Assembly: GCA_000002435.2 (NCBI GenBank)
Contig: CM018790.1
Direction: 5' to 3' (one strand)
Origin: Giardia intestinalis
Taxonomy: Eukaryota
Length of the DNA stretch: 64,000 nucleotides
Shown: piece by piece, positions 1-21,279 of the stretch
Numbering within the stretch: position 1 is the stretch's first letter
Layout: every line of letters starts with the position of its first letter
Made by a program: the position numbers and the translations under genes
Notes under the pieces: model-generated
The model's input: only the letters and a program-made list of their open reading frames with translations
Databases searched by the model: none
What the model was told of the DNA's origin: nothing

Positions 1-2021
1 TCTAAAAAAACTTCGGAAGCCTTATAATTCATAAAGTCAATCAGCTTGTGTAAATAAAACTGCACCATAGGATTGCCAAAGTCGGCAGAAATTCCGGCCG
101 AGGCGTATGTGGAGAGGTCGCATTTCCAACACGGAGTATTTAGATTCTCAAACCCAGCTTGCTTTTGATGAGCAGAAGAAATCCAAAGGTTTGTTTGATA
201 GAGGATCTGATCATATGGTGAGTTTAGCATTTCCATCTTACACGCCTTACAGTAAGGGCTGAAGCATTGGGGGCATAGATACATTTTTCCTTTAGCATTA
301 AGGAGCAAGGCTATCTCTATTGTTGGAAAAATAGGCATGTTATGGTCGGAAGCTTTGTCCCCAAGAAACCGCTGAGCATCGAGTGTATACACATCTGAAA
401 GCTCTCCAATAAAGAGATCAGAGGCTCCTAGCTCCTGTTGACATATGCTGCACAATACCGGTCGGATCATATTTGCCGTTGAGAACGTAACATGATAGCT
501 GCACTCATATGATATGCTCGGTTGTTCTAGATCAAGTGCTTGCAAATAGAGCCCACTGGCTTCATGAAAAGAGCGTCGCTTTAATTGTGGCTCTAGATTG
601 CCATCCGTATGGGCATCAGCTACACTAGAAGAAGTGCTGCTAATGGTAGATTTTGAGGAATACAGTTGTCCATCTATTACAGCCTCTTCTTTGGACTCGT
701 CCTGTTCTTCTTCCAGATCCTGAAGCTTAACGTCTTGGAATGTCACAGAATGATCTCTGAGACTTATGTTTTGATTTGGAATCAGTGAGCACGTAAGAGA
801 GCATTGAAAGAGATGTGCACTTTGAGGAATTTCCGCCAATGAAACTCTTCCAACCACGTGACAGGTACGAATGCAAGTTTCCGTGCAACAAACCTCAGGA
901 TACAATAGATCCTCTAACCCCCCTTGTAAAGGTATGTGCAAATTGGCTACTTTGTCGTCCTGAAGATGTGCATTTATGACAAAAGTAAGGGGGACTCTTT
1001 GAACCCCTTTACAAACGGTGGGATCTGAGATAGGGAGGGTCAATAATATACCTGTTAAGAATACACTTAAAGAGGTTGTCAATTGTTCGGAGCGAACAAG
1101 AAGCTCTCCATCAAGAAAAACAGAGGGGAAAATGCGCCCATCTATTGCCCATATTCTCCGTACAAGGACAAGAACACTCGCTATAGTACTTTCTCTTCCT
1201 TGGGCCTCAGACATATAATGGTAAATCGCAGCGTCCCCTACAGATATATGGTCGTAGCAAAGATAATTGGTTGCCCAAAAGAGATCCATGCGGCGAAAGA
1301 GCCTACTAGCAGCCATGCTCACTGGTACATACTGATGATCGCCTACCAATTGTTGCAAAGGGGCGTCTATTAATGCGGTAAGACCCCGGTTCCCAAGGCC
1401 CCCAGGAAGAGAGTAGTCACAGGGAGTATCAGTAGATCTATTATCAGGGAGGTACTCTGCATTCATGGCCATGAGAGCTCTTTCATAACCCTTTATTATC
1501 GGTGGGAATACAGGAGTGTCCTGTGTCTGTGCATCTGTCAGTATCTTGAGCTTCAAAGACTCAAGGGAAGCAAGCATTGGAATAGTAACGTCTTTCCTAA
1601 CACTAGCTGTGCCAATAATAGATTGTGAATCGTTTTCTGATGCCTCCTCAACAGGAAAGTTAAAAGATTCTGTTTGGATTGCCGCAGGCGTCGAATTAAT
1701 GAGAATACCAGCCGTGCCAAATTCGCGAACACCAGAGGCATGGAGGACATGAGGCATGCCAAGGGGGAGTGCAGTGATGGGTGGATAAGAAGAGCCAACA
1801 AGAACAATATCGAAAATATGAGCACAAATGTCACGAAGAAGATCCTTAGTGGCTGGATTCTGCGATAACTGAATTAGTAGCGGAGTGCTGAGATGCTGTA
1901 TCTTAAAGTAAGGTACAGCTAGAGACTCTTTGGTTCGAAGTATATAGACAAAATATGTTAATTTGTCCAACGAACGTTGACCCGTAATGGCTTCCTTAGG
2001 TATATTGCCTATTGGAATTAT
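1..2021 (-). CDS. Exon 2 (partial) of an intron-containing gene; hypothetical protein, more than 670 aa in window, Cys-rich C-terminal region (CPQCFSPYCKAC...CWKC). The reading frame continues past position 1, so the 3-prime end lies outside the window.
   Basis: Manual minus-strand translation is open from 2021 down to position 1 and protein-like (…DIVLVGSSYPPITALPLGMPHVLHASGVREFGTAG…). The ORF track misses it because there is no stop in the window. It joins in phase to exon 1 across a canonical Giardia intron. Confidence 0.6.
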   Translation of the reverse strand, partial: MIPIGNIPKEAITGQRSLDKLTYFVYILRTKESLAVPYFKIQHLSTPLLIQLSQNPATKDLLRDICAHIFDIVLVGSSYPPITALPLGMPHVLHASGVREFGTAGILINSTPAAIQTESFNFPVEEASENDSQSIIGTASVRKDVTIPMLASLESLKLKILTDAQTQDTPVFPPIIKGYERALMAMNAEYLPDNRSTDTPCDYSLPGGLGNRGLTALIDAPLQQLVGDHQYVPVSMAASRLFRRMDLFWATNYLCYDHISVGDAAIYHYMSEAQGRESTIASVLVLVRRIWAIDGRIFPSVFLDGELLVRSEQLTTSLSVFLTGILLTLPISDPTVCKGVQRVPLTFVINAHLQDDKVANLHIPLQGGLEDLLYPEVCCTETCIRTCHVVGRVSLAEIPQSAHLFQCSLTCSLIPNQNISLRDHSVTFQDVKLQDLEEEQDESKEEAVIDGQLYSSKSTISSTSSSVADAHTDGNLEPQLKRRSFHEASGLYLQALDLEQPSISYECSYHVTFSTANMIRPVLCSICQQELGASDLFIGELSDVYTLDAQRFLGDKASDHNMPIFPTIEIALLLNAKGKMYLCPQCFSPYCKACKMEMLNSPYDQILYQTNLWISSAHQKQAGFENLNTPCWKCDLSTYASAGISADFGNPMVQFYLHKLIDFMNYKASEVFL

Positions 2022-2241
2022 CTGTGTGTCAGTTGGATGGTAAATGCTCGGCGGTCAATCCCTCGTCTAAAAGCCCGTTAATAGAAAGCCAAAAGAGGTA
2101 AGAAGTTGAATAGTTGGCAGGAATGCGTACCCTTTTGGCAGTTTCGTAGAGCGTGATAGGAGAGGAAATTGTTCTACCTTCGATCCGCTGGGCTAGTTTC
2201 CAGTAATCTTGAAGTATAGTGCCGCCGAGCTACAAACATAC
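2022..2241 (-). other. 220-nt spliceosomal cis-intron (minus strand): 5-prime GTATGTT ... CAACTGACACACAG 3-prime
   Basis: Seen in sequence: minus-strand GTATGTT at 2241-2235 and a fused branch-point/acceptor CAACTGACACACAG ending at 2022. Both match the Giardia intron consensus (GTATGTT / [AC]CTRACACACAG). The exon 1-exon 2 junction stays in frame (…LGR|IIPIGN…). Confidence 0.7.
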
Positions 2242-2331: not shown

Positions 2332-2734
2332 TTTCTTTTTTTGGTACTAACGGTGATCATAATAGTGCCTCTAACTCAGAGATAAGCCACTATGATATCT
2401 ACTGGAGTATTACTAGCTTAATTACGAGCATACTATTAGATATCTCTTGGCAGAAAGAGGCTGTCGCTTGTCAGTAGAAAAATAAGGAGGAAGGTTTATT
2501 TTCTCGAATTATCTGCGTAATTCTAGCGAGTTTTGTGTCTGTCGCCACTGAGCTTGTTGACTAGGTAGTCAATATAAGGCATGTTAGGTGCCATACATTG
2601 TTATCATGAGTTTTGGGCTGATTTCATCAATCTGATAGCGAATGACCTGTACATGTAATACACTGATATAGCTGCTTCACTATAGCCCAGGATGAAGAAT
2701 TAGACGCAGGGTTTTGCCGAGACATGTAGGCAAG

Positions 2735-3991
2735 CGCGCGGGGACGCCTGTCTGCAGGGGGCCGCAGCCCCAGGCGTCTCATCCCGGGCGCCGCACGCTG
2801 CACCCCTGGACTCGGTCCCTCGGGGCCCTGAGCATGCCTCCACACTGCGCGGGACAGAACCTGCTCACCAGGAGCTGAGGAGATGCCCCGCTCAGTGCCC
2901 ATGCCGACGACACATCCATCTTCCATAGTAGCAACAGTGACGCGACGGGGGTAGTCACAGAGGCGGCAGGCCTGGCGAAGCGATTGGCTCGACGGTCAAC
3001 ACTGACAAGTATAGGAACACAGAGGGGCAGGAGGCCTCCTTCCTGGCCGGTCGAAGGAGCTCCCAGGGCAACGGAGGGCCGAAGCTAGTGATGGCACTAA
3101 TCACTCGCCGTGCTGGTTGAGACGGACCCACACGCAACCCATGTGAATCCCTCGACAAGAGATGGGGCCCCTGGGGTGCTTGGCTGACAGAGGCGGACTG
3201 ATCCTGCCCACACCGGAGAGCGGTGACCTGGGCCACCTGCCGGGCGTCTGCCGCAGCAGCTGGCAGTGCCTGACACCCTCGAGTGGACAGGCGCCGGTTG
3301 TAGAGAGACGACCTCGATGAACCGGTCCTGACCGCTCCTGGTGCCTCAGACGACGCCTCTCAGAGAGGTGGCCCTGGACCGACGCCTCGGTGGACCGAAG
3401 CATCACCCAAGTGTGCTGTGCAGATGGACCAGCCCACACGTCACCGAGCCAGACGCACTGCACAGGGTGAGCGCCGACATGATCTCGTGCTGGGTGACGG
3501 ACCACCTGCAAGAGTGCACTGCGATCCATGAGTAGGAGGGCAAACCAGGGCCGGACCTCTCCCCCGACACAACGCATGGGAGTACTCTGCCGGCATCCGC
3601 GAACGCGTACTATGACTCCAAGATAGAGGCGCACGGGGAGCGCATCCTTGATAATGGAACAGATGGTGCCCTCCACGAGAAGATGAAGAGGCACCCCGAG
3701 GAACGAGGTAGGCACCCGGGGTCGTGGCGTATCCTATCTTCGTCATGAAGCATCAGCACCACAAAGCTACTCCGGAGTACATGGCCAGAGTCAATTGCTC
3801 TCGAGACTAGATCGCTGTGACCGACACAAGGCCCGAGACAACGGATGCTCAATAGATGTCAGACGATGGTTGACCCCGACGGGCCAGAGAGAAGAGACGC
3901 CCCGGAGCATATAGTGGAGCACCCAACGGCTCCCAGGCGGGATGCACAAGGCTCTTCTCCAGAGTGGGCGGCATCCGAGCTTCGGACTCTG
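2735..3991. repeat. Left arm of a 1257-bp GC-rich (about 62%) inverted repeat; reverse complement of 11165-12421
   Basis: Six pairs of track ORFs have identical translations on opposite strands (e.g. 3101..3715(-) = 11441..12055(+); 2627..2926(-) = 12230..12439(+)). Boundaries were placed by base-by-base comparison. Only 1-2 mismatches were noticed (PEHIVEH vs PERIVEH). The arm is GC-rich with ORFs in all frames, so it is read as non-coding. Confidence 0.85.
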
Positions 3992-3998
3992 GACGGGT

Positions 3999-6120
3999 TT
4001 ACTCGGACAGGAGCTGGCAAGCCGACCTTGATGAAGAAGAGCAGATCTCGTTTGAGAAGATGTCTACTATCTCTTTGCGATCCTTCTTCTTAGCGATATT
4101 GAGGGCAGTGGTACCAGGCGAGTGACCATGGCAGCTGCAGGTTGTCTTCAGATATTTCTCGTTTTCTTTAGGAAGTCTTGTACATTCCACGGTGTTGCTA
4201 TATGCTGCGTTCATAAGGGCGATCCCCCTTGGTCGTTTGCATGCCGCCTTCGCCCTTCAGCAGGGGCCTGACACACTCTGGATGGCCATTGCACACCGTC
4301 CATGTGAGGACAGTCTGATGCTCGTTGTTCTTTATACGAGCTTCTTGCTTGAGCAGCTCTACACTCCCTTCGTGCCCTCGTGCTGCTGCATACATGAGCT
4401 CCGTCCACCCTGAGATACTGCTCTCATACTCCATCAAAAGCTCAACGTGCCCAATATAGTCCACCAGGGGGTCATTGGAACGATTGCACCGTGCCGCGAA
4501 TACGAGAGCGGTCCAACCGCCTACTTTCTCTCCCTTTTCGTGTTCCACTAGCAGTTCTACTATTTCTGCGTATCCATTGCCGCAGCCACCATCAGAGCTG
4601 TTCCTTTGCGCATGTACCATCCGCTTCTTGTGACCTCTTTGTATGTTTTCCTCCCCCTCTGGATGGGTAAGAGTGCTTTTACAGCCCCCGCGTCGTTTCT
4701 ATTGACAGCTCGCATGAGCGCCGTGACGCCGTTCTCATCGGTTGGGTCGATGGCCTCCACCACGGTTCCATGTCCTGCCTCTGCCGCAATCACCAAGGCC
4801 GTCTTGCCTTCGCTGCCGATCCGGTCCTTCTCATATGGGACCAGAAGGGAGGCAGCTCTTGCATAGTCCTCCTCTGTGGCGATCATCAGGTAGTCCAGCC
4901 ATTCTTGTCCTGGAGGCCCCTCTCCTCCCCAACAAGCAACTCGACGGGACTGACGTGCCCCTGCTCGTCGCGCTGACCAACGCCGAGTCTTTCTTCAAGC
5001 AGCATCCAGACGGTCTCCGTGCTATTTGTGTGCAGCACGCATCAGCCCGGGCAACAAAAAGAGGCTGGACTGAGGGTCAGTCGTGTTCATCCTGTCACCG
5101 AACTGTGCAAGCCTATTCTCCAGTGCCTTACTCATGGCTAGATGCTCCTTACCTTGGTCTTCAAGTGCGTCGATCTTAGTAGATCTAGTCTTAACATCCT
5201 CTTCCAGCAACGCGATCCTGGCGTTAGCGCCATTCAGCGCAGCCTCCAAGGATCCGCACTTATACTTCAGCATCACGCACTGACCTCCCAACTCACCAAC
5301 TGGGATGTCGAATGTAGCGAGCGTCTCGTGCAGCTCCCTGGCCGTCGGCCTCCTCTCTGGCTCCAATACGAATATCCGCTCCAGAACACTCTTTATGAAG
5401 CCATCAGTGACACCGCTCAGGTCCGGCCTCCACCCATCGATGAAGACCTCTGCTGGCTCCTTGCCCCCCAAGAAGTCCGGTCTCCTCAGAGTAGTAAGTT
5501 CATAAATGATGACCCCGAGGCTCCATACATCAGAAGCGGGGCTGGCCTCATTACGGAGGAGCGCCTCGGGGGCCATGTATACTGCCGTGCCTGCAATGGT
5601 GCTCCCGCATCTCAGGGCGTCCTTACAGAGGCCGAAGTCGGCGATGACGAAGCGCTCTCCGTCTGCGCTGATGAGGACGTTGGCAGGCTTGAGGTCGCGG
5701 TGGACGAGGCCCTTAGCACCTACCCCACTAAGGCCGTGGAGGTAGGCGAGGGCGGCGGCGACCTGCTTCATGACAGAGAGGATCATAGCGATAGGGACGG
5801 GGATCTTCCTTCGTTTGTGCTCGGTGAGGAGGTTGTCAAGAGTCCTGCTGTGCCGGTCCGTGACGACGTAGATGAGGCCCTCGTCTTCAATCACTTGATG
5901 ATACTTGAGGACCCGGGTGAAAGATGTTAAGAAGGGCGGCCAGCCTACGCTTAATAGCATCCACACCGTGCTGATCCAGACCGTCGAGCCGGATCTCCTT
6001 CACAGCAAGGTGGGGGCATCCCCTGAGAGAGTAGATAACACTGAAGGCCCCCGCTGAGCACGGGGATGCCACCAGCGCCCATCGGCTCTGCAAAGCCGCT
6101 AACTGCACTGTTACTAGCAA
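3999..6120 (-). pseudogene. Decayed NEK-kinase/ankyrin-repeat (Protein 21.1-like) gene with at least 3 frameshifts
   Basis: The kinase N-lobe (GAFSVIY…LAVKEI) is in frame of 5887..6120. The catalytic core (HRDLKPANVL, ADFGLCK, YMAPE) is in 5022..5966. The ankyrin repeats are split over three frames (4560..4886, 4198..4620, 3999..4214). All are on the minus strand and contiguous. Confidence 0.55.
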
Positions 6121-6754
6121 CTCCTAGGGCGCCCTCTGCGGTGGCTGGGACAGGGAGTGGAGTCAACAGCCGCAGCTGATTTTAACTGCAATCCGGAGCC
6201 ATCCTTTGGAGTGGCCTTGGCTACTACCCGAGCAAGGCGCCCAGTGTGAGCTGTCGATGGCAGGCCAAGGAGAGGCATACTAACGGCTTGTATGGCCTTA
6301 AGCAGGCCGGATCCTGGAGGCCGACGCGGAGTGCCCCAGACAGAGTATGCCGATCAGGGACCACACTGAGCTCTGGATGCATCACTAGGGAGAACTCTCG
6401 TCATGTTATCCACAACCAGCCATCGTCTCCGGACGGTCGAGAAGTAGGCGCGGCTTACCCATGAGACCTCTGAGCGCACCTGCAGGCGGGGTCAGTGATA
6501 CAGTGACAGCAATGTACAGGAGTGCGCCCCGAGCAATCACTCCACAAGAGAGGTGCGGTCTGAGTCTGGCCCTCACTGGTCCTGTTCCTATGGAAGTCAG
6601 AGAGAACTACACTATCAGCTGGCCTCTGGTTGGTGTGCTCCTATCTCGTCCTTCTCCGGTCCAACTGATCAAGAGAGCAAGAGCGGCTGTCTCTCACTGC
6701 TCGCGGTCAATGCACAAGTCTGATGAAAGAGCAGTGGCACGTGTACTCCGGCTA

Positions 6755-9700
6755 ATGTTGGTAGGATTTCTCCTAGTTTGTGCAACAGTGCTGGCAAAGG
6801 ACAGTGGGAAGACCGCGCAGTGTGACGGAGACAATGGCTACACGCTCCAGGGCGACGCGTGCACCAAGGCGGCTCCTGACAACGCGTGCCAGACCCTGGG
6901 AACCGCCGGGTGTGCCACGTGCGACTCGGGTAGCGGCGGGGAAACCTGTCTTACATGCAAGAAGGACGCGCAATACGTCGCGGCCAACAAGAAGAGCTGC
7001 AAGGATGCCTGCGACACGAGCGGAGGAGAGGTAATAGACCAGGCTGCCAGCCCGGCGAAGGTCTGCAAGTGTGACGGAGACAATGGCTACACGCTCCAGG
7101 GCGACGCGTGCACCAAGGCGGCTCCTGACAACGCGTGCCAGACCCTGGGAACCGCCGGGTGTGCCACGTGCGACTCGGGTAGCGGCGGGGAAACCTGTCT
7201 TACATGCAAGAAGGACGCGCAATACGTCGCGGCCAACAAGAAGAGCTGCAAGGATGCCTGCGACACGAGCGGAGGAGAGGTAATAGACCAGGCTGCCAGC
7301 CCGGCGAAGGTCTGCAAGTGTGACGGAGACAATGGCTACACGCTCCAGGGCGACGCGTGCACCAAGGCGGCTCCTGACAACGCGTGCCAGACCCTGGGAA
7401 CCGCCGGGTGTGCCACGTGCGACTCGGGTAGCGGCGGGGAAACCTGTCTTACATGCAAGAAGGACGCGCAATACGTCGCGGCCAACAAGAAGAGCTGCAA
7501 GGATGCCTGCGACACGAGCGGAGGAGAGGTAATAGACCAGGCTGCCAGCCCGGCGAAGGTCTGCAAGTGTGACGGAGACAATGGCTACACGCTCCAGGGC
7601 GACGCGTGCACCAAGGCGGCTCCTGACAACGCGTGCCAGACCCTGGGAACCGCCGGGTGTGCCACGTGCGACTCGGGTAGCGGCGGGGAAACCTGTCTTA
7701 CATGCAAGAAGGACGCGCAATACGTCGCGGCCAACAAGAAGAGCTGCAAGGATGCCTGCGACACGAGCGGAGGAGAGGTAATAGACCAGGCTGCCAGCCC
7801 GGCGAAGGTCTGCAAGTGTGACGGAGACAATGGCTACACGCTCCAGGGCGACGCGTGCACCAAGGCGGCTCCTGACAACGCGTGCCAGACCCTGGGAACC
7901 GCCGGGTGTGCCACGTGCGACTCGGGTAGCGGCGGGGAAACCTGTCTTACATGCAAGAAGGACGCGCAATACGTCGCGGCCAACAAGAAGAGCTGCAAGG
8001 ATGCCTGCGACACGAGCGGAGGAGAGGTAATAGACCAGGCTGCCAGCCCGGCGAAGGTCTGCAAGTGTGACGGAGACAATGGCTACACGCTCCAGGGCGA
8101 CGCGTGCACCAAGGCGGCTCCTGACAACGCGTGCCAGACCCTGGGAACCGCCGGGTGTGCCACGTGCGACTCGGGTAGCGGCGGGGAAACCTGTCTTACA
8201 TGCAAGAAGGACGCGCAATACGTCGCGGCCAACAAGAAGAGCTGCAAGGATGCCTGCGACACGAGCGGAGGAGAGGTAATAGACCAGGCTGCCAGCCCGG
8301 CGAAGGTCTGCAAGTGTGACGGAGACAATGGCTACACGCTCCAGGGCGACGCGTGCACCAAGGCGGCTCCTGACAACGCGTGCCAGACCCTGGGAACCGC
8401 CGGGTGTGCCACGTGCGACTCGGGTAGCGGCGGGGAAACCTGTCTTACATGCAAGAAGGACGCGCAATACGTCGCGGCCAACAAGAAGAGCTGCAAGGAT
8501 GCCTGCGACACGAGCGGAGGAGAGGTAATAGACCAGGCTGCCAGCCCGGCGAAGGTCTGCAAGTGTGACGGAGACAATGGCTACACGCTCCAGGGCGACG
8601 CGTGCACCAAGGCGGCTCCTGACAACGCGTGCCAGACCCTGGGAACCGCCGGGTGTGCCACGTGCGACTCGGGTAGCGGCGGGGAAACCTGTCTTACATG
8701 CAAGAAGGACGCGCAATACGTCGCGGCCAACAAGAAGAGCTGCAAGGATGCCTGCGACACGAGCGGAGGAGAGGTAATAGACCAGGCTGCCAGCCCGGCG
8801 AAGGTCTGCAAGTGTGACGGAGACAATGGCTACACGCTCCAGGGCGACGCGTGCACCAAGGCGGCTCCTGACAACGCGTGCCAGACCCTGGGAACCGCCG
8901 GGTGTGCCACGTGCGACTCGGGTAGCGGCGGGGAAACCTGTCTTACATGCAAGAAGGACGCGCAATACGTCGCGGCCAACAAGAAGAGCTGCAAGGATGC
9001 CTGCGACACGAGCGGAGGAGAGGTAATAGACCAGGCTGCCAGCCCGGCGAAGGTCTGCAAGTGTGACGGAGACAATGGCTACACGCTCCAGGGCGACGCG
9101 TGCACCAAGGCGGCTCCTGACAACGCGTGCCAGACCCTGGGAACCGCCGGGTGTGCCACGTGCGACTCGGGTAGCGGCGGGGAAACCTGTCTTACATGCA
9201 AGAAGGACGCGCAATACGTCGCGGCCAACAAGAAGAGCTGCAAGGATGCCTGCGACACGAGCGGAGGAGAGGTAATAGACCAGGCTGCCAGCCCGGCGAA
9301 GGTCTGCAAGTGTGACGGAGACAATGGCTACACGCTCCAGGGCGACGCGTGCACCAAGGCGGCTCCTGACAACGCGTGCCAGACCCTGGGAACCGCCGGG
9401 TGTGCCACGTGCGACTCGGGTAGCGGCGGGGAAACCTGTCTTACATGCAAGAAGGACGCGCAATACGTCGCGGCCAACAAGAAGAGCTGCAAGGATGCCT
9501 GCGACACGAGCGGAGGAGAGGTAATAGACCAGGCTGCCAGCCCGGCGAAGGTCTGCAAGTGTGACGGAGACAATGGCTACACGCTCCAGGGCGACGCGTG
9601 CACCAAGGCGGCTCCTGACAACGCGTGCCAGACCCTGGGAACCGCCGGGTGTGCCACGTGCGACTCGGGTAGCGGCGGGGAAACCTGTCTTACATGCAAG

Positions 9701-10798
9701 AAGGACGCGCAATACGTCGCGGCCAACAAGAAGAGCTGCAAGGATGCCTGCGACACGAGCGGAGGAGAGGTAATAGACCAGGCTGCCAGCCCGGCGAAGG
9801 TCTGCAAGTGTGACGGAGACAATGGCTACACGCTCCAGGGCGACGCGTGCACCAAGGCGGCTCCTGACAACGCGTGCCAGACAGAGAACTGCCAGGAATG
9901 CACTAGCAAAGGCACGGCCAACGAGGTCTGTACAAAGTGTACTTCTACTCATTACTTGACACCAACAAACCAGTGCGTACCTGACTGCGCAGCCATCAGC
10001 GGATACTACGGAGATACTGACAAGAAGTGTAAGCCATGCAGCCTTGAGTGTGCTGAGTGCGTTGGGCCGGCCAACAATCAGTGCAGTGCCTGTCCTGCTG
10101 GCAAGAAACTGACATATACAGATGACAGCCATCCTAATAACGGAGGCGCCTGCGGGGATGCGTGCAAAGTGTCTGCAGATGGCACTGGCTGTGAGACATG
10201 TGGGGCCCAAATAGGAGGAACTGCATACTGCTCAAAGTGCAAGACCTCTACTCAGGCCCCCTTGAACGGCAACTGTGCGGCCAATTCACGAGCAGCCTTC
10301 TGTGCAACAATCACAAATGGGGCCTGTACACAATGCAATGAGGGTTACTTCCTCAAGGACGGCGGCTGCTATCAGACAGATAGACAGCCTGGTAAGCAGG
10401 TGTGTAGTAGTGCACAGGGAGGAACATGTCAGACGTGTGCCAACGGACTGCAGGCACAAGGTGGGGCCTGTGGGGAGTGCCATTCTACTTGTGCTACGTG
10501 CTCGACTGCAGGTGCGGCTGATAAGTGTAAGACCTGTGCCACTGGGTATTACAAGACAAGCGATAGTGATGGCCCGTGCATGAAGTGCTCAGAGAAGATC
10601 TCCGGATGCAAGCAATGTGTGTCGTCATCTGGCAGCTCAGTCATATGTTTAGAATCAGAAGTAGGCACTGGTGGAAGCGTCAACAAGAGTGGCCTCTCCA
10701 CGGGGGCCATAGCCGGTATCGCTGTTGCTGTGATTGTTGTTGTAGGTGGTCTTGTTGGTTTCTTGTGTTGGTGGTTCCTGTGCAGAGGAAAGGCGTAG
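6755..10798 (+). CDS. vsp: Variant-specific surface protein (VSP) with 12.3 tandem 83-aa Cys-rich repeats; signal peptide MLVGFLLVCATVLA; KDGGCY motif; C-terminal TM plus CRGKA
   Basis: The track ORF is 6461..10798. The first ATG that gives a signal peptide is 6755, since 6461-6754 is GC-rich without signal features. The protein has dense CXXC motifs and ends …GGLVGFLCWWFLCRGKA, the hallmark Giardia VSP tail. AGTAAAC follows 13 nt after the TAG stop. Confidence 0.85.
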   Translation: MLVGFLLVCATVLAKDSGKTAQCDGDNGYTLQGDACTKAAPDNACQTLGTAGCATCDSGSGGETCLTCKKDAQYVAANKKSCKDACDTSGGEVIDQAASPAKVCKCDGDNGYTLQGDACTKAAPDNACQTLGTAGCATCDSGSGGETCLTCKKDAQYVAANKKSCKDACDTSGGEVIDQAASPAKVCKCDGDNGYTLQGDACTKAAPDNACQTLGTAGCATCDSGSGGETCLTCKKDAQYVAANKKSCKDACDTSGGEVIDQAASPAKVCKCDGDNGYTLQGDACTKAAPDNACQTLGTAGCATCDSGSGGETCLTCKKDAQYVAANKKSCKDACDTSGGEVIDQAASPAKVCKCDGDNGYTLQGDACTKAAPDNACQTLGTAGCATCDSGSGGETCLTCKKDAQYVAANKKSCKDACDTSGGEVIDQAASPAKVCKCDGDNGYTLQGDACTKAAPDNACQTLGTAGCATCDSGSGGETCLTCKKDAQYVAANKKSCKDACDTSGGEVIDQAASPAKVCKCDGDNGYTLQGDACTKAAPDNACQTLGTAGCATCDSGSGGETCLTCKKDAQYVAANKKSCKDACDTSGGEVIDQAASPAKVCKCDGDNGYTLQGDACTKAAPDNACQTLGTAGCATCDSGSGGETCLTCKKDAQYVAANKKSCKDACDTSGGEVIDQAASPAKVCKCDGDNGYTLQGDACTKAAPDNACQTLGTAGCATCDSGSGGETCLTCKKDAQYVAANKKSCKDACDTSGGEVIDQAASPAKVCKCDGDNGYTLQGDACTKAAPDNACQTLGTAGCATCDSGSGGETCLTCKKDAQYVAANKKSCKDACDTSGGEVIDQAASPAKVCKCDGDNGYTLQGDACTKAAPDNACQTLGTAGCATCDSGSGGETCLTCKKDAQYVAANKKSCKDACDTSGGEVIDQAASPAKVCKCDGDNGYTLQGDACTKAAPDNACQTLGTAGCATCDSGSGGETCLTCKKDAQYVAANKKSCKDACDTSGGEVIDQAASPAKVCKCDGDNGYTLQGDACTKAAPDNACQTENCQECTSKGTANEVCTKCTSTHYLTPTNQCVPDCAAISGYYGDTDKKCKPCSLECAECVGPANNQCSACPAGKKLTYTDDSHPNNGGACGDACKVSADGTGCETCGAQIGGTAYCSKCKTSTQAPLNGNCAANSRAAFCATITNGACTQCNEGYFLKDGGCYQTDRQPGKQVCSSAQGGTCQTCANGLQAQGGACGECHSTCATCSTAGAADKCKTCATGYYKTSDSDGPCMKCSEKISGCKQCVSSSGSSVICLESEVGTGGSVNKSGLSTGAIAGIAVAVIVVVGGLVGFLCWWFLCRGKA
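6821..9883 (+). repeat. Tandem array of 12 complete plus 0.3 copies of a 249-bp unit inside the VSP CDS, with no differences seen between copies
   Basis: The unit tgtgacggagacaatggcta… recurs at 6821, 7070, 7319 … 9809 with a period of exactly 249. Every repeat-derived ORF translation is identical. Each unit has 10 Cys (CATC, CLTC, CKDAC). Confidence 0.9.
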
Positions 10799-10810
10799 AT
10801 GTACTTAGAT

Positions 10811-10817
10811 AGTAAAC
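10811..10817 (+). terminator. Giardia poly(A) signal AGTAAAC for the VSP
   Basis: AGTRAAY consensus 13 nt downstream of the stop codon. Confidence 0.6.
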
Positions 10818-11164
10818 ACGTCACTAGTGGTGCAGCTGCCGACAAGCGGGTGCGCCTTATGTACGTTGCTAGCCTGCAACCGGGAGAAGGGGTGGCCGCT
10901 TCCCTGCCCCCGAGCGTGCTCTGCACAGCGCCGTTGACACCGTCATGGCCGAGAACGGTGCACTCGATATCCTGCGCCTGCCGATGAGCTGCATCGATGC
11001 GAGGAGAGCAGCCCAGCTCCACAGCTCGTCTGCTTCTGATGGGATCTATTAGCACGCGTAGGCAGCCCGAACAGTCTTATTTTTGCTTCGGCGAACTGGG
11101 CAAGATCGGAGTTTAATGGCAGTTGAGGCAAGTGAAGGCAGGCCCCTTGCTCCCAGGCAGTGTT

Positions 11165-12421
11165 CAGAGTCCGAAGCTCGGATGCCGCCCACTCTGGAGA
11201 AGAGCCTTGTGCATCCCGCCTGGGAGCCGTTGGGTGCTCCACTATGCGCTCCGGGGCGTCTCTTCTCTCTGGCCCGTCGGGGTCAACCATCGTCTGACAT
11301 CTATTGAGCATCCGTTGTCTCGGGCCTTGTGTCGGTCACAGCGATCTAGTCTCGAGAGCAATTGACTCTGGCCATGTACTCCGGAGTAGCTTTGTGGTGC
11401 TGATGCTTCATGACGAAGATAGGATACGCCACGACCCCGGGTGCCTACCTCGTTCCTCGGGGTGCCTCTTCATCTTCTCGTGGAGGGCACCATCTGTTCC
11501 ATTATCAAGGATGCGCTCCCCGTGCGCCTCTATCTTGGAGTCATAGTACGCGTTCGCGGATGCCGGCAGAGTACTCCCATGCGTTGTGTCGGGGGAGAGG
11601 TCCGGCCCTGGTTTGCCCTCCTACTCATGGATCGCAGTGCACTCTTGCAGGTGGTCCGTCACCCAGCACGAGATCATGTCGGCGCTCACCCTGTGCAGTG
11701 CGTCTGGCTCGGTGACGTGTGGGCTGGTCCATCTGCACAGCACACTTGGGTGATGCTTCGGTCCACCGAGGCGTCGGTCCAGGGCCACCTCTCTGAGAGG
11801 CGTCGTCTGAGGCACCAGGAGCGGTCAGGACCGGTTCATCGAGGTCGTCTCTCTACAACCGGCGCCTGTCCACTCGAGGGTGTCAGGCACTGCCAGCTGC
11901 TGCGGCAGACGCCCGGCAGGTGGCCCAGGTCACCGCTCTCCGGTGTGGGCAGGATCAGTCCGCCTCTGTCAGCCAAGCACCCCAGGGGCCCCATCTCTTG
12001 TCGAGGGATTCACATGGGTTGCGTGTGGGTCCGTCTCAACCAGCACGGCGAGTGATTAGTGCCATCACTAGCTTCGGCCCTCCGTTGCCCTGGGAGCTCC
12101 TTCGACCGGCCAGGAAGGAGGCCTCCTGCCCCTCTGTGTTCCTATACTTGTCAGTGTTGACCGTCGAGCCAATCGCTTCGCCAGGCCTGCCGCCTCTGTG
12201 ACTACCCCCGTCGCGTCACTGTTGCTACTATGGAAGATGGATGTGTCGTCGGCATGGGCACTGAGCGGGGCATCTCCTCAGCTCCTGGTGAGCAGGTTCT
12301 GTCCCGCGCAGTGTGGAGGCATGCTCAGGGCCCCGAGGGACCGAGTCCAGGGGTGCAGCGTGCGGCGCCCGGGATGAGACGCCTGGGGCTGCGGCCCCCT
12401 GCAGACAGGCGTCCCCGCGCG
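11165..12421. repeat. Right arm of the 1257-bp inverted repeat (partner of 2735-3991)
   Basis: Reverse-complement identity with the left arm. Inner edge: cagagtccgaag = revcomp of cttcggactctg at 3980-3991. Outer edge: identity stops at 12421/2735. Confidence 0.85.
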
Positions 12422-12593
12422 GGTGCTCACGAACGTTGAAAGAGAATATTTACAGTTGAACCCTCAGCTTACATCAGCGTTCTTCAGGGTAGTCATCTTT
12501 TAATAGAGCATATTATAGAGATATCTACGCATATGACTAGCATGTGACTATAGATAGGACCAATTCAATCCTTTAAAAAGATCATCCTTCAAA

Positions 12594-13055
12594 ATGACTA
12601 TCTTCGATCTTCTGTTCAATTCTGAGACTAGTAACGTTAAATCAGTCCATAGGGCTCCTCATACACTTATCTTTCTTGCATTTGTCTGTACAAAATGCGG
12701 CGAAAAGACGAAAGAGATAGGAATATGCCCCGAGGATAGGGTAGAAATACCTAATTCTAAGGGTGACACCAACATGCACTACAAGTGCAAAGGATGTAGT
12801 TCCAGATGTAATGTAGATATCATTTCCGAAGCCACCTTTGCCCCAGAAGACGCAGGTCCAACTGGAGCACGCGTTGCCACGGTCGAGTGTCGAGGATCGC
12901 TGCAGCCACTAAAATGGTACTATGATCAGTTGATCGTCACGTCTGCCAGTGGCACAGAGCTAAAGGCTTCTGGCAGTGACCCAGACTGGTGTGATTATGA
13001 TGAACTACTAGAGGAGCAGGTGGAGCTGACCGAGATGAGGTTTACTGTGCAGTAA
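12594..13055 (+). CDS. DUF866 / CXXC-motif zinc-binding protein (C1orf123/CZIB family), 153 aa
   Basis: CTKCGEK … CKGCSSRC zinc knuckles, …VECRGSLQPLKW… and a C-terminal DPDWCDYDE…MRFTVQ, resembling human C1orf123 (VEFECRGLEPVDF … KDWTDYDEK…). AGTAAAT overlaps the stop. Confidence 0.6.
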   Translation: MTIFDLLFNSETSNVKSVHRAPHTLIFLAFVCTKCGEKTKEIGICPEDRVEIPNSKGDTNMHYKCKGCSSRCNVDIISEATFAPEDAGPTGARVATVECRGSLQPLKWYYDQLIVTSASGTELKASGSDPDWCDYDELLEEQVELTEMRFTVQ

Positions 13056-17702: not shown

Positions 17703-20700
17703 ATGAGTCACTTCGGGATCAAGTACCAGGTCTCCGACATTGTCAGCAACGACGTGTATCTGAAAATCAGCCAAGGAAAGAGGCGATCTGATGGCGCTCT
17801 GGTAACTTTTAGGGAATTAGACTACCACAATCTAATCAGTGCAAACATGCCCCTGAACTTTTATGAGCTCGAGGCTCATAGCAAGATAAATCACTATGCC
17901 ATTTGCCGCATTGAAGAAATGCACCACGATCAGCACAGGTCGCGTCTCTTCCTTGTCACGGAGTTTTGGGACAATAAAACACTTGCCGATCTTACCAGCG
18001 CTCATAAGCAGACGGGGGTGCCCGTTCCAGAAGATCTTGTCTGGCGAATCTTAGTCCACGCAAACGAGGGCCTCTTTTACTACCACAGTGTGTTCAAAAG
18101 CAACGCCCCTGATGTTCGGCGTATCTTGCACAGACACATCACCCCACAATCCATCGTTATGAGGAATAATGGAGCCGTTAAGATCGTCCACCCAGAGATA
18201 CCCTATCTGATTGCTATTCGGGATCACTCCAACATTTCCCCTGAGGAGAAGAAGTACGTTGCTCCAGAGGTGCTGGGAGGCAGGGGATTCTCGGACCGTT
18301 CTGACATATATGCTCTCGGCTGCATCATCTATCAGTTGTGTACGCTGCGCAACTTTGCCGACGTGTTCAAGAATGATATTTCTTACTACACTAATCCGCG
18401 CACCACGGTCCCCAATCCAGAACCCAACGGAGGCCGTATGTATACTGCCTTACTCCCAAACTATTCCCAGGAACTGAATGAAATTATCGGGAATATGACG
18501 GCATTTGATGAGACGCGTCGCTTCACCAGTAACGATGTGCGCAACTTCCCCAAATCTCGCCACGTTCTAGACCAGGACCTGGGGAGTGGTATCTACAAGT
18601 ACGCTAGCACGGATTACAACCCGGACGTCTATAAGGAAATTTTCACACCAGGGCATACGACCGATCCCATGTACAGTAGGAACACCCTTACCAGCACAGG
18701 GTATCTTACCAATCCGCCAGAGACGTATGCACCGAGTACATTTTCGCCATCAGGAACTCAGCTAACGACTACCTTCCCGCAGAGTACAGAGGTTGTGGAA
18801 GGAGATCCGTCATTTGCAAGTTCGGGGAAGAAGTCTCGATCAGCTTCGAAGACGGGCCGTGCAAAAACACCAAAGGAAAAAACTTCCAGGGCGAAAACTC
18901 CCAAGGCAAAGACGCCTAAAACGAAGACTCCTAAGACAAAAGGGAAGAGTCTTAGGGACGCCGAATCGACAGAATATTATGATCCACCTACAGCAGATAT
19001 GAATCTTTACCATAGCCCTACTGCAACAACAGTGATGCGCTCGACATACAATATCCCCACTGCAGATAATTATCAACCTCTTATCTACACAGAGAAGCCA
19101 TACTATGATCCTGGAACATCAACGTTTAGGGCAATGCCCATTTCAGATCGCGTATCGGCCAGCCCAGATAACCGTGGCCGTGGGCCTGCAGGTGTTACAA
19201 ACAGTTATGGAGGCACTAGCAATAGACTATCGTGGAACGAGCATGCCGATTACGACACTCAGTCGGAAGTGCCACGTCTAAGAACACCTGGCCTAACAAC
19301 CTCGGTTCCATCTCAGGCTGGGACTCCTCGTGAAGCCATAGAGGTGTACTCTCAACCTTCCCAGTACTCAACACGCTCTATGCGTAGTACCACAGAGCGC
19401 GATAACACGGGACAAGCAAAGAATAGGCGGCACTCTAGTAGCCGCGATCTCGACTATGTTATTCCTGAATACATCGACGAGCTCCTACGCGACATCATTG
19501 CTAGCAAGTTCGGACAAAAAGCAAACGTTGATAACATCCTTCAAGAGCTTTATAAAGTTGTTCCGGGAACACTTTTAACCGAGGGACGCAAGGTCTATGC
19601 TCCAGACGATATCGTCCAGATGCTAATGCTCAAAGAGGAGCTCGAGCGCAAGGTGGAGCCGTATCTCAATCGACTGACGATTCCGAATAGCACTACTTCG
19701 AAGGGAAGCTACAGTTATGGATCCTATCGCGACGACGACTCTATAGATAGATCACCCCACACTACTTACAGGACATCAAGCAATTCCACAACTCATCTGA
19801 GCATCAACACGATGAACCCCACGGAGACGCGTGGAACCCTCCTCAAGGACAGAACCATGACCAGCAGACTCCACACCAAGTCATTCAACGACCACACGCC
19901 TGATACTGTTAACAACCTCCGTGATTCTCAAGTATTTTCGGGGGAGGATACAGTCTCTAACGATCTGACTCCGCTGATGCGCGCTGCAATCCGCAATGAC
20001 GTGGACGCTGTTGAGTCTTCCATTTCCGAATATGGCGGATACAGCAATCTGACTGGAAACACGGCTCTTATGATGGCAGCATCTAAGAATAATTATAACG
20101 TGATACCGAAGTTAATTCCTCGCGAAGCAAAGATTGTGGATCGTGATGGCTTGACCGCTCTCAATTACGCTGCATACTACGGTCACGTCGAGTCTGTCAA
20201 ACTGCTTATGGATCATGAGGCAGGCATTCAATCAAACTATGGGCAGACAGCATTGATGGCGGCGTGCGACCGCCAGCATTTGAACATCGTTAAGCTGCTA
20301 AAGCATCGAGAGGGTGGACTTGTCAATAACGTCGGGGAGACCGCGCTTATGAGGGCCGTAAAGGCAGGAAATACGTTCATCGTGCAGGAGCTTTTGGATA
20401 CGGAGGCCGGTATCAGAAACCAGGACGGAGAAACAGCTCTTATGCTCGCCGCTCACGCCGGCAACATGAGTCTTTGCAGAGCGTTACTTGCGAAAGAAAT
20501 AGGTCTCCAGTCTAAGTACGGGCAAACGGCTCTCATGGTGGCAGCACAACGCAATAACATGCAGCTTTGCGAGCTCCTTATTGGCCGTGAGGTCAATCTT
20601 AAGGATAATTCGGAAGAAACTGCCTTGATGAAGGCGGCCAGGGTTGGTGCCACTGATGCCGTCCGTTTTCTGATGAACTTTGAGGCAGGGATGAAGGGCA

Positions 20701-21056
20701 GGGACGGTATAACAGCCCTGATGATAGCTGCTGAAGAGGGACATAAGGACATCGTCCAGCTGCTAATCCCTCGCGAGAAGATGATGGTGATGCGCGACGG
20801 TTCCTCTGCTCTGATGCTCGCAGTGTGTACGCGCCACCTGGAGGTGGTCAAGCTCCTGGCGCCCGTGGAGTCGAAGATGCAGAAGGCAACAGGGGAGACG
20901 GCTATGATAATTGCAATCCGTAACAAGCGCCCCGAGTGTGCCCGCCTGCTTCTGGAGTACGAGGGCAGCATGAAGCACAATGGAATGAATGTTCTTCAGA
21001 TCGCAGACGCAGAGGGCGAGTACGCGCTCGTCGAGGATCTGCGAGGCCTGGTGTGA
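17703..21056 (+). CDS. NEK-family pseudokinase with a central S/T/P/K-rich low-complexity region and C-terminal ankyrin repeats (Protein 21.1-like), 1117 aa
   Basis: Kinase-like fold without a catalytic Asp or DFG (LHRHITPQSIVM, HPEIPY) but with an APE-like VAPEVLGG. (KTPK)n run. At least 10 ankyrin repeats (TALMMAA…, LTALNYAAYYGHVESVKLLM…). AGTAAAC overlaps the TGA stop. Confidence 0.8.
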   Translation: MSHFGIKYQVSDIVSNDVYLKISQGKRRSDGALVTFRELDYHNLISANMPLNFYELEAHSKINHYAICRIEEMHHDQHRSRLFLVTEFWDNKTLADLTSAHKQTGVPVPEDLVWRILVHANEGLFYYHSVFKSNAPDVRRILHRHITPQSIVMRNNGAVKIVHPEIPYLIAIRDHSNISPEEKKYVAPEVLGGRGFSDRSDIYALGCIIYQLCTLRNFADVFKNDISYYTNPRTTVPNPEPNGGRMYTALLPNYSQELNEIIGNMTAFDETRRFTSNDVRNFPKSRHVLDQDLGSGIYKYASTDYNPDVYKEIFTPGHTTDPMYSRNTLTSTGYLTNPPETYAPSTFSPSGTQLTTTFPQSTEVVEGDPSFASSGKKSRSASKTGRAKTPKEKTSRAKTPKAKTPKTKTPKTKGKSLRDAESTEYYDPPTADMNLYHSPTATTVMRSTYNIPTADNYQPLIYTEKPYYDPGTSTFRAMPISDRVSASPDNRGRGPAGVTNSYGGTSNRLSWNEHADYDTQSEVPRLRTPGLTTSVPSQAGTPREAIEVYSQPSQYSTRSMRSTTERDNTGQAKNRRHSSSRDLDYVIPEYIDELLRDIIASKFGQKANVDNILQELYKVVPGTLLTEGRKVYAPDDIVQMLMLKEELERKVEPYLNRLTIPNSTTSKGSYSYGSYRDDDSIDRSPHTTYRTSSNSTTHLSINTMNPTETRGTLLKDRTMTSRLHTKSFNDHTPDTVNNLRDSQVFSGEDTVSNDLTPLMRAAIRNDVDAVESSISEYGGYSNLTGNTALMMAASKNNYNVIPKLIPREAKIVDRDGLTALNYAAYYGHVESVKLLMDHEAGIQSNYGQTALMAACDRQHLNIVKLLKHREGGLVNNVGETALMRAVKAGNTFIVQELLDTEAGIRNQDGETALMLAAHAGNMSLCRALLAKEIGLQSKYGQTALMVAAQRNNMQLCELLIGREVNLKDNSEETALMKAARVGATDAVRFLMNFEAGMKGRDGITALMIAAEEGHKDIVQLLIPREKMMVMRDGSSALMLAVCTRHLEVVKLLAPVESKMQKATGETAMIIAIRNKRPECARLLLEYEGSMKHNGMNVLQIADAEGEYALVEDLRGLV

Positions 21057-21061
21057 GTAAA

Positions 21062-21134
21062 CTGGACGATGGGGGATTTGAACCCCCGGCCTCGACGATG
21101 CAAACGTCGCGCTCTACCAACTGAGCTAACCGCC
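21062..21134 (-). tRNA. tRNA-Ala (anticodon UGC), 73 nt
   Basis: The minus strand reads GGGCGGTTAGCTCAGTTGGTAGAGCGCGACGTTTGCATCGTCGAGGCCGGGGGTTCAAATCCCCCATCGTCCA. Cloverleaf features: 7-bp acceptor with G3:U70 (Ala identity), D-arm GCTC/GAGC, anticodon loop TTTGCAT, T-loop GGTTCAAATCC, A73 discriminator. Confidence 0.85.
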
Positions 21135-21279
21135 CGTGCCAAGGGAAAAAATGCCAACATGCGCGAAAAGGTACTTCAAAGGTTTCTAGGTCTCTAAGGA
21201 TGTGTCGGGGGCTTCTGCAGACGATCCGCGGAGGGCCCCTACCAAATGAAAATTCAAAAAAATCATTTCAATTTTGAAT

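Follow-up and report, generated by a model that had tools for sequence, protein, structure and literature searches.

How can the two arms of a long inverted repeat remain almost identical to each other while the DNA that surrounds them drifts apart between lineages? The question is raised by a locus of Giardia intestinalis WB, which lies within a 64,000-nucleotide stretch of contig CM018790.1 (hereafter the window; positions are counted from its first letter) and in which two arms of 1.26 kb bracket a VSP surface-antigen gene and a NEK kinase/ankyrin pseudogene, between the genes GL50803_0035332 and GL50803_005568. This locus forms a small island of variable-family genes, with a conserved housekeeping gene on either side and a long inverted repeat at its borders. 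We compared it among three genomes, namely, WB (A1), DH (assemblage A2) and P15 (assemblage E), and the sequence comparison leads us to regard the bracket as probably an old, position-fixed, palindrome-like repeat that is homogenised by arm-to-arm gene conversion with ectopic input.

The repeat was first defined within WB. A repeat search of the first 16 kb of the window revealed one inverted pair, 2730-3994 and 11162-12426, of 1265 nt each and with a spacer of 7167 nt. The core arms and the unique intergenic DNA used below as a yardstick are as follows.

2735 to 3991 (extended to 2730-3994 by the repeat-search tool), no strand: left arm; non-coding, 59-65% G+C, with no Pfam match, codon periodicity or VSP/NEK relic.
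11165 to 12421 (extended to 11162-12426 by the tool), no strand: right arm; short-read contigs break about 30 nt inside it.
2055 to 2734, no strand: A+T-rich unique left intergenic DNA; 41% G+C, 99.0% identical to DH and 80.9% to P15.

Upon base-by-base comparison of the core arms as reverse complements, 1255 of 1257 positions were identical (99.84%), and the sole difference within the core was at 3909-3910, where AT stands against GC. The initial annotation, made from the letters of the window alone, had noticed about 1-2 mismatches between the arms. Edge mismatches were located just outside the core, at 2733-2734 and 3992, and identity fell abruptly from 100% to background within a few bases at each of the four boundaries (2734/2735, 3991/3995, 11161/11165 and 12421/12422). 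Such an inverted repeat cannot be a product of chance. A blastn search of the arm against the whole window yielded no third copy, the spacer was likewise unique within the window, and no repeats of at least 35 nt were found in the remaining 51 kb. The G+C content of the arms contrasts with 41-44% in the flanks, and the whole block from 2735 to 12421 stands out. At the left outer junction the sequence passes from GTAGGCAA into GCGCGC, and at the right one from GCGCGC into GGGTGCTC; the flanking bases are not in common, and a comparison of the outer junctions revealed no target-site duplication, in agreement with the initial annotation.

Next, we examined the bracket in the other two lineages. 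In DH, the end of AHGT01000003.1 (L012) is 98-100% identical to window positions 1 to about 2800 and then runs into an arm; the right-flank genes are found on AHGT01000008.1 (L015), which starts inside an arm and contains 600 nt of it. These two arms of DH lie in opposite orientation and, over the 600 nt, are identical except for one 15-nt patch. In P15, positions 5313-7106 of the left-flank contig L034 match positions 1-1799 of the right-flank contig L027 at 99.4%, again inverted in the genome, and the arms, whose identity we put at about 99.9%, differ by two substitutions and a low-quality patch over at least 1.8 kb; the outermost 49 nt of each P15 arm still align with WB within the flank alignments. 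The A2 genome has outer junctions identical to those of A1, and in E they are conserved; the site is occupied in all three lineages, and an empty site was not found among them. These alignments indicated that the repeat predates the split between assemblages A and E and that their common ancestor already possessed the same outer junctions.

To calibrate the divergence of the arms, the unique intergenic DNA at 2055 to 2734 was taken as a yardstick of neutral divergence. Between WB and DH, the arms are 87% identical, versus 99-100% for the adjacent unique intergenic DNA; between WB and P15, the arms are about 55% identical globally, with alignable patches of 72-78%, versus 81-82% for the adjacent unique DNA. 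Within the 600 nt shared with DH, 107 sites were found at which both WB arms have one base and both DH arms another. The arms of one genome, however, differ from each other by only 0.2-0.6%. Judged by these alignments, the arms diverge between genomes faster than the unique DNA next to them. Without homogenisation, arms of this age should differ at least as much as the flanks do, and yet they differ by no more than the 0.2-0.6% given above in each genome; for this reason, we infer that the arms evolve in concert. The initial annotation had offered very recent duplication or ongoing gene conversion as the cause of the arm identity. The conversion half of that statement fits the finding of the same junctions in A2 and E with arms homogenised in each genome, whereas its recent-duplication half does not.

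The arm is also represented elsewhere in Giardia. It belongs to a dispersed family with 65-87% pairwise identity, the copies of which are truncated to different extents, and no sampled copy elsewhere is more than 87% identical overall to the arm. One paralogue, in L010, passes unbroken from arm sequence into the 3' end of a NEK gene and is about 93% identical across the junction; the copy in L014 has an ankyrin gene and a VSP no more than a few kb away, and that in L013 has no NEK, ankyrin or VSP neighbour. Copies of this repeat family, the arm included, tend to be located in variable-gene islands. The initial annotation held that its reading would fall if the arms proved to be a ubiquitous dispersed repeat unconnected with VSPs and without orientation heterogeneity; the arm does belong to a dispersed family, but none of the sampled copies exceeds 87% overall, and NEK, ankyrin or VSP genes are close to several of them. 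Inverted pairs of family copies were absent from the eight other loci inspected, where short-read contigs would break at such repeats.

Some individual copies have features of their own. At its end, the L010 copy repeats its own start in inverted form over about 60 nt, with 75-80% identity (240-297 versus 1122-1181), which makes a unit of about 950 nt with inverted termini. Weaker inverted termini were seen in L013 (9710-9726 versus 10683-10699), and none were present in the WB, DH and L008 copies; as these termini are clear in one paralogue only, we do not take them as a family feature. The paralogue closest to the WB arm, with 82.5% identity over 1 kb, is on L008 (ERZ19219916 NODE_2996), an ORF-poor contig (ORF, open reading frame) of 9360 nt. 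Its coverage is 27.7x, compared with 13-14x for other Giardia contigs of the same sample, and because of this twofold read coverage it may represent a collapsed two-copy region.

Divergence between the WB and DH arms is not uniform along their length. Identity is 100% over 10983-11270 and about 98% over 12261-12421 (the outer 160 nt), with roughly 80-85% and several indels in between. A sliding-window comparison gave identities of 91-100% between the DH arm and the L010 paralogue over 11599-11860, and of 93-96% between the WB arm and the L008 paralogue over 11570-11720. Given this mosaic and these local matches to L010 and L008, the import of patches from family members is the simplest reading. 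The substitutions between WB and DH comprise 129 transitions and 23 transversions (C>T 36, G>A 33, T>C 30 and A>G 30). Hypermutation was considered and rejected, since the spectrum is symmetric and lacks a direction like that of repeat-induced point mutation (RIP) or of a deaminase.

On the mechanism that we propose, intrachromosomal homologous recombination between the inverted copies would give rise to repeated gene conversion from arm to arm, and diverged family paralogues at other loci would occasionally donate patches, which would then be transferred to the opposite arm. A flip of the 7.2-kb inner segment should result from crossovers between the arms, and the arms, together with the conserved 3' end of the VSP, could supply homology for the replacement of the enclosed genes. 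The enclosed genes do differ among the three genomes: WB has a NEK pseudogene and a repeat-bearing VSP, DH has a different VSP, which is only 45% identical to that of WB in its C-terminal part, and P15 has an intact NEK gene. It is plausible that homologous recombination inverts the inner segment. In DH, the left arm on L012 adjoins a VSP 3' region with 100% identity to the DNA next to the right arm of WB, while the NEK gene of P15 is on the same side and strand as the NEK pseudogene of WB. The DH arrangement fits an inversion and hints at one, but it would equally be produced by a symmetrical VSP pair in DH or by the path that an assembler chose through a repeat longer than the reads.

Further observations were made on the bracket in other genomes. 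The 15-nt patch between the DH arms lies at L015 83-97 versus L012 1694-1702 and reads ACGACGGGAGTTAGG versus TGCCAGTTG; the A2-like metagenome contig L016 is WB-like there, and the difference is a genuine micro-conversion or else a fault of the 454 assembly. The P15 island contains a second, unrelated inverted repeat (L034 1-712 and 3448-4159, ACVC01000053.1), at least 712 nt long and 100% identical, which is cut by the contig end; its spacer of 2735 nt holds an intact NEK gene of 685 aa. Because this second repeat surrounds a NEK gene in the P15 island, the bracketing of variable-family genes by inverted repeats is seen to recur. In assemblage B, five of the six contigs that carry the orthologue of GL50803_005568 (L028-L033) end 140-230 nt upstream of it, approximately at the point that corresponds to the start of the arm in WB. 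Such contig ends suggest that assemblage B also has a repeat there, although L030, the sole contig to continue past this point, bears no sequence resemblance to the arms.

What, then, is the arm itself? Rfam searches returned no match in the arms at gathering thresholds and none at E<=1 over 10790-12600, and the ten longest open stretches of the arm had no Pfam match at E<=1. When VSP and NEK segments were used as tblastn queries, no VSP similarity was detected in the arms at E<=10 and nothing significant was obtained for NEK. Cysteine makes up 2-5% of the arm translations, compared with 12% of the VSP. The arms exhibit no codon periodicity, as substitutions relative to eight family copies are spread evenly over codon positions (p = 0.24-0.98), and their fold z-scores are unremarkable (-1.9 and -1.6). 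A coding origin of the arms was rejected in view of the missing Pfam matches, VSP/NEK similarity and codon-position signal, and a structured RNA or rDNA was rejected on the two Rfam searches and the fold z-scores. These results bear out the initial annotation, which had seen in the arms neither a convincing ORF nor obvious rDNA.

A 210-aa ORF of the arm was also rejected as a gene. It has 31 homologues in the database, but these are spurious ORFs that were predicted on further copies of this DNA; they are drawn from several DH contigs, one WB gene model and metagenomic Giardia contigs. An exact look-up of the arm ORF gave no match. Coding remnants of a Gil-type (GilM, GilT, GilD) reverse transcriptase or endonuclease were likewise absent from the ten longest open stretches by Pfam at E<=1, a comparison with Gil elements at the DNA level not having been made. 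Neither the junction motif nor the arm motif had a match in two JGI metagenome scans.

The genes within and beside the bracket, and the intervals between them, are as follows.

3 to 2054, minus strand: left flanking single-copy gene, 5' part of GL50803_0035332 (KAE8302140.1); points away from the island.
4002 to 6180, minus strand: NEK kinase/ankyrin pseudogene, by six-frame translation; Pkinase E=2e-31, Ank_2 E=4e-16.
6181 to 6754, no strand: intergenic DNA from which the NEK pseudogene and the VSP diverge, inside the bracketed segment; read from the sequence.
6755 to 10798, plus strand: VSP gene of 1347 aa, KAE8302141.1 / XP_037901708.1; PF03302 E=1e-69, exact sequence look-up.
6819 to 9882, plus strand: tandem array in the VSP, 12.3 perfect copies of a 249-bp (83-aa) unit; 100% matches, no indels.
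10799 to 11164, plus strand: unique region 3' of the VSP, with an AGTAAA polyadenylation signal near 10815; 10983-11161 is 100% identical to the DNA beside the left arm in DH.
12594 to 13055, plus strand: right flanking single-copy gene GL50803_005568 (KAE8302142.1), a CXXC zinc-binding protein, PF05907; points away from the island.

The recognisable coding content between and next to the arms consists of the VSP, the NEK pseudogene, GL50803_0035332 and the CXXC zinc-binding protein. Pfam and six-frame translation confirmed that one repeat-bearing VSP and one frameshifted NEK/ankyrin gene are enclosed, as the initial annotation had described, and there is only one VSP in the bracketed region. 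This VSP ends in CRGKA and starts at ATG 6755, which lies within TAATGTT (6753-6759), the initiator motif defined by Adam et al. (PMC2996952). A 1145-aa antisense ORF at 6773-10210 is a by-product of the VSP repeat. The exact VSP protein KAE8302141.1 was found only in the long-read assembly, and the 249-bp repeat is absent from the table of the 2010 vsp catalogue of Adam et al.; for these two reasons, the array was probably collapsed in earlier assemblies.

The NEK pseudogene occupies at least three reading frames, its kinase core (5025-5999), N-terminal part (5890-6123) and ankyrin repeats (4002-4994) being in different frames. Its stop codon, TAA at 3999-4001, is embedded in AGTAAA and lies 5-8 nt from the left arm, while the AGTAAA of the VSP (within 10796-10820) lies about 345 nt ahead of the right arm; the inner boundary of the repeat therefore coincides with a gene end on one side only, at the NEK pseudogene stop and not at the VSP. 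As to the flanks, the open frame of the left gene runs off the start of the window; it is 99% identical to DHA2_151664 and has no Pfam match, and orthologues of its protein exist in DH, P15 and WB (in the cluster of the DH protein). Five kb to the right of the island, at 17703-21056, there is an intact-looking NEK kinase/ankyrin gene of 1117 aa that is conserved in DH, P15 and assemblage B, and a tRNA-Ala(TGC) gene (21063-21135) follows on the opposite strand within 7 nt of it. Matches from a bacterial promoter/terminator scan arise from the VSP repeats and were disregarded, as such a scan is irrelevant to Giardia.

Several points count against an old repeat kept uniform by conversion. Gene conversion was deduced from a comparison of three genomes and not seen directly, only 600 nt of the DH right arm are known, and the right-flank contig of P15 ends inside the repeat. 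The DH and P15 assemblies were built from short or 454 reads, so that their arms could be partly consensus-collapsed and the identity within each genome exaggerated, although the flank-specific junctions in DH and P15 are real despite such a collapse. Part of the fast divergence between lineages could be due to a locally raised mutation rate rather than to ectopic conversion, and the repeat may be a neutral by-product of recombination in the island, any function being putative only. Assemblage B is uninformative, for the 3 kb upstream of its right-flank orthologue resemble neither the arms nor the left-flank gene in sequence, and the age limit is consequently set by the A/E ancestor.

These reservations have to be set against what the alternatives would require. 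If the arms were alike merely because they are young, a one-off inverted duplication in the WB lineage would explain their 99.84% identity, and Adam et al. did consider identical inverted vsp pairs to be possibly recent duplications (PMC2996952). DH and P15, however, possess both arms, at the same junctions as WB, and the flanks have diverged by up to 19% since the lineages split, yet the arms of each genome are still at least 99.4% alike. A recent origin would demand independent re-duplication at identical junctions in three lineages, which is very unlikely, and we consider this explanation highly improbable. Still less credible, indeed barely so, is the idea that the second arm is an assembly artefact and that there is one true arm. 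Repeats often cause misassembly, and identical vsp pairs ended contigs in the 2007 assembly (PMC2996952), but the window matches the PacBio-based AACB03 assembly (PMC7000408), and each arm is joined to a different unique flank in the independent assemblies of WB, DH and P15. Moreover, short-read contigs that carry the right-flank genes, from many independent runs, all stop about 30 nt into the right arm, as is expected at a true repeat. The initial annotation had named the assembly duplication of a single arm as an outcome that would overturn its reading; instead, both flank-arm junctions recur in the independent DH and P15 assemblies.

The remaining alternatives, all suggested in the initial annotation, concern what the repeat does rather than how old it is. 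As a programmed invertible switch, a flip of the 7.2-kb segment would turn the VSP on or off or alter its regulation, for example through antisense transcription from flanking bidirectional promoters. The join between left arm and VSP 3' region on L012 of DH is the arrangement expected from inversion. Predicted inversions are also common, with 162 intra-isolate ones in WB according to Pollo et al., and VSPs are enriched in many of the structural variants that these authors predicted (PMC7048089). Both flanking genes also point away from the island, so that their promoter regions face the arms. Against this, the DH join is equally explained by a symmetrical VSP pair or by assembler path choice, and no recombinase gene is among the coding content in or next to the bracket, while arms of 1.26 kb imply ordinary homologous recombination; the notion of a site-specific invertible segment is therefore not sustained. 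Nor would a flip change the DNA directly upstream of the VSP, as had been proposed, because the gene, its initiator and about 600 nt upstream all lie inside the segment and move together, leaving the promoter context as it was. We know of no evidence that vsp switching involves DNA rearrangement. Such switching was described as epigenetic by Adam et al. (PMC2996952), and we judge a programmed switch at this locus to be quite unlikely. A mobile origin, in which the whole 9.7-kb unit or each arm would be a foldback or terminal-inverted-repeat transposon with VSP cargo, is less probable again, and we give it very little weight. It would suit the long terminal inverted repeats, the membership of the arm in a dispersed family, the inverted termini of about 60 nt in the L010 paralogue and the setting of a G+C-rich island in A+T-rich DNA. 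Yet there is no target-site duplication and no Pfam signal of a transposase, integrase or reverse transcriptase, nor is there a recombinase; the same outer junctions are occupied in each of the lineages A1, A2 and E, with no empty site observed; the family copies are old (65-87% identity) and variously truncated; and no inverted pair of them turned up at the other loci examined. A role for RNA was weighed as well. RNA interference (RNAi) and abundant antisense transcription have been reported for the control of Giardia vsp genes, and complementary arms of 1.26 kb could pair if transcribed on the same chromosomal strand, giving double-stranded or hairpin RNA that would feed RNAi and silence VSPs. 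However, the arms contain no VSP sequence, so that small RNAs from them would not target any VSP, and a hairpin needs one transcript of at least 9.7 kb that runs past AGTAAA signals, including that of the VSP. By geometry, read-through from the divergent VSP and NEK pseudogene would produce arm RNAs that are identical rather than complementary, and the fold z-scores of the arms (-1.9 and -1.6) are unremarkable, which makes a hairpin-RNA source very unlikely. Thus, we see the repeat as a structural and recombinational feature of vsp islands, a relative of the inverted vsp pairs, and not as a programmed switch or a mobile element.

Since before the A/E split, an inverted duplication has stayed at one site here and has been homogenised continually, with a fast turnover of its sequence and with enclosed genes that vary among lineages. 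This moves the interpretation of such structures away from recent duplication and towards a maintained recombination substrate. It also offers a locus of a size suited to the polymerase chain reaction, at which mitotic gene conversion and inversion could be measured, in a parasite of which one lineage (AI) has been argued to be asexual and yet has conversion tracts enriched at VSPs (PMC12669663). Antigenic switching is not explained by this locus alone. A broader proposal, which we regard as unlikely though worth stating, is that islands bounded by inverted repeats are a general and ancient architecture of the variable-gene loci of Giardia, in which fixed non-coding arms would serve as homology handles that are kept alike by conversion, flip the segment between them and allow ectopic swapping of VSP and NEK genes. 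The second inverted repeat of P15, around an intact NEK gene, and the different VSP of DH are compatible with this idea. If it were true, Giardia would possess a mitotic, sex-independent engine that diversifies its antigen repertoire, and antisense transcription of the VSP might depend in part on how a segment is oriented with respect to the flanking promoters, which face outward.

The closest known systems are the inverted vsp pairs. Adam et al. described 14 identical inverted pairs, including vsp1267, with 2.2-3.8 kb between the paired ORFs, and called them "an interesting, but cryptic observation" (PMC2996952). Xu et al. listed 19 pairs, seven of which point away from each other, four of these seven holding a reverse-transcriptase remnant and one a NEK, and reported one pair 12,440 bp apart (PMC7000408). 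[quoted passage not shown] The repeat in the window resembles these pairs in that a vsp locus has a near-identical inverted duplication, which surrounds a unique spacer and breaks off abruptly at its divergence points; in both, the spacer can hold a NEK gene or pseudogene, and short-read contigs end there. It differs from them in that its arms are devoid of VSP or coding signal and a single VSP lies in the spacer, the two identical VSP frames of the pairs being absent here. The spacer of 7167 nt also exceeds the usual 2-4 kb, although one published pair is separated by 12,440 bp. Furthermore, the published pairs were read as possibly recent, whereas the repeat analysed here is conserved in position across A1, A2 and E. 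What is new relative to the known inverted vsp duplications is thus the combination of non-coding arms, a VSP in the spacer and a repeat that is old and homogenised rather than merely young.

The locus likewise resembles the non-syntenic VSP/NEK/ankyrin islands of Giardia, being a G+C-rich block of variable genes between conserved genes, the content of which varies by isolate (PMC7000408). Its fixed borders, marked by a position-conserved inverted repeat, set it apart, and such borders are not described in the available literature on these islands. Bacterial invertons and the FLP/FRT system of the yeast 2-micron plasmid have in common with it that inverted repeats bracket a segment which can in principle flip. 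Those systems, however, use short recombinase sites, an adjacent dedicated recombinase and a promoter that is re-joined to a gene, and none of these features is present here.

A further comparison is offered by the palindromes of the human and chimpanzee Y chromosomes (P1-P8) and the inverted repeats of plastids, which are kept uniform by arm-to-arm gene conversion. The arms of 1.26 kb are far smaller than those of the Y palindromes and are non-coding, whereas the Y arms carry genes that conversion is thought to protect. In addition, unlike in the Y palindromes and plastid repeats, the arms in Giardia outpace their flanks in divergence between lineages and contain patches from dispersed paralogues. 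In behaviour, though, the locus resembles them: in all of these systems, arms more than 99% identical surround a unique spacer, an orthologous structure occurs in diverged lineages, the arms are more alike within than between genomes, and inversion of the spacer would be an expected by-product.

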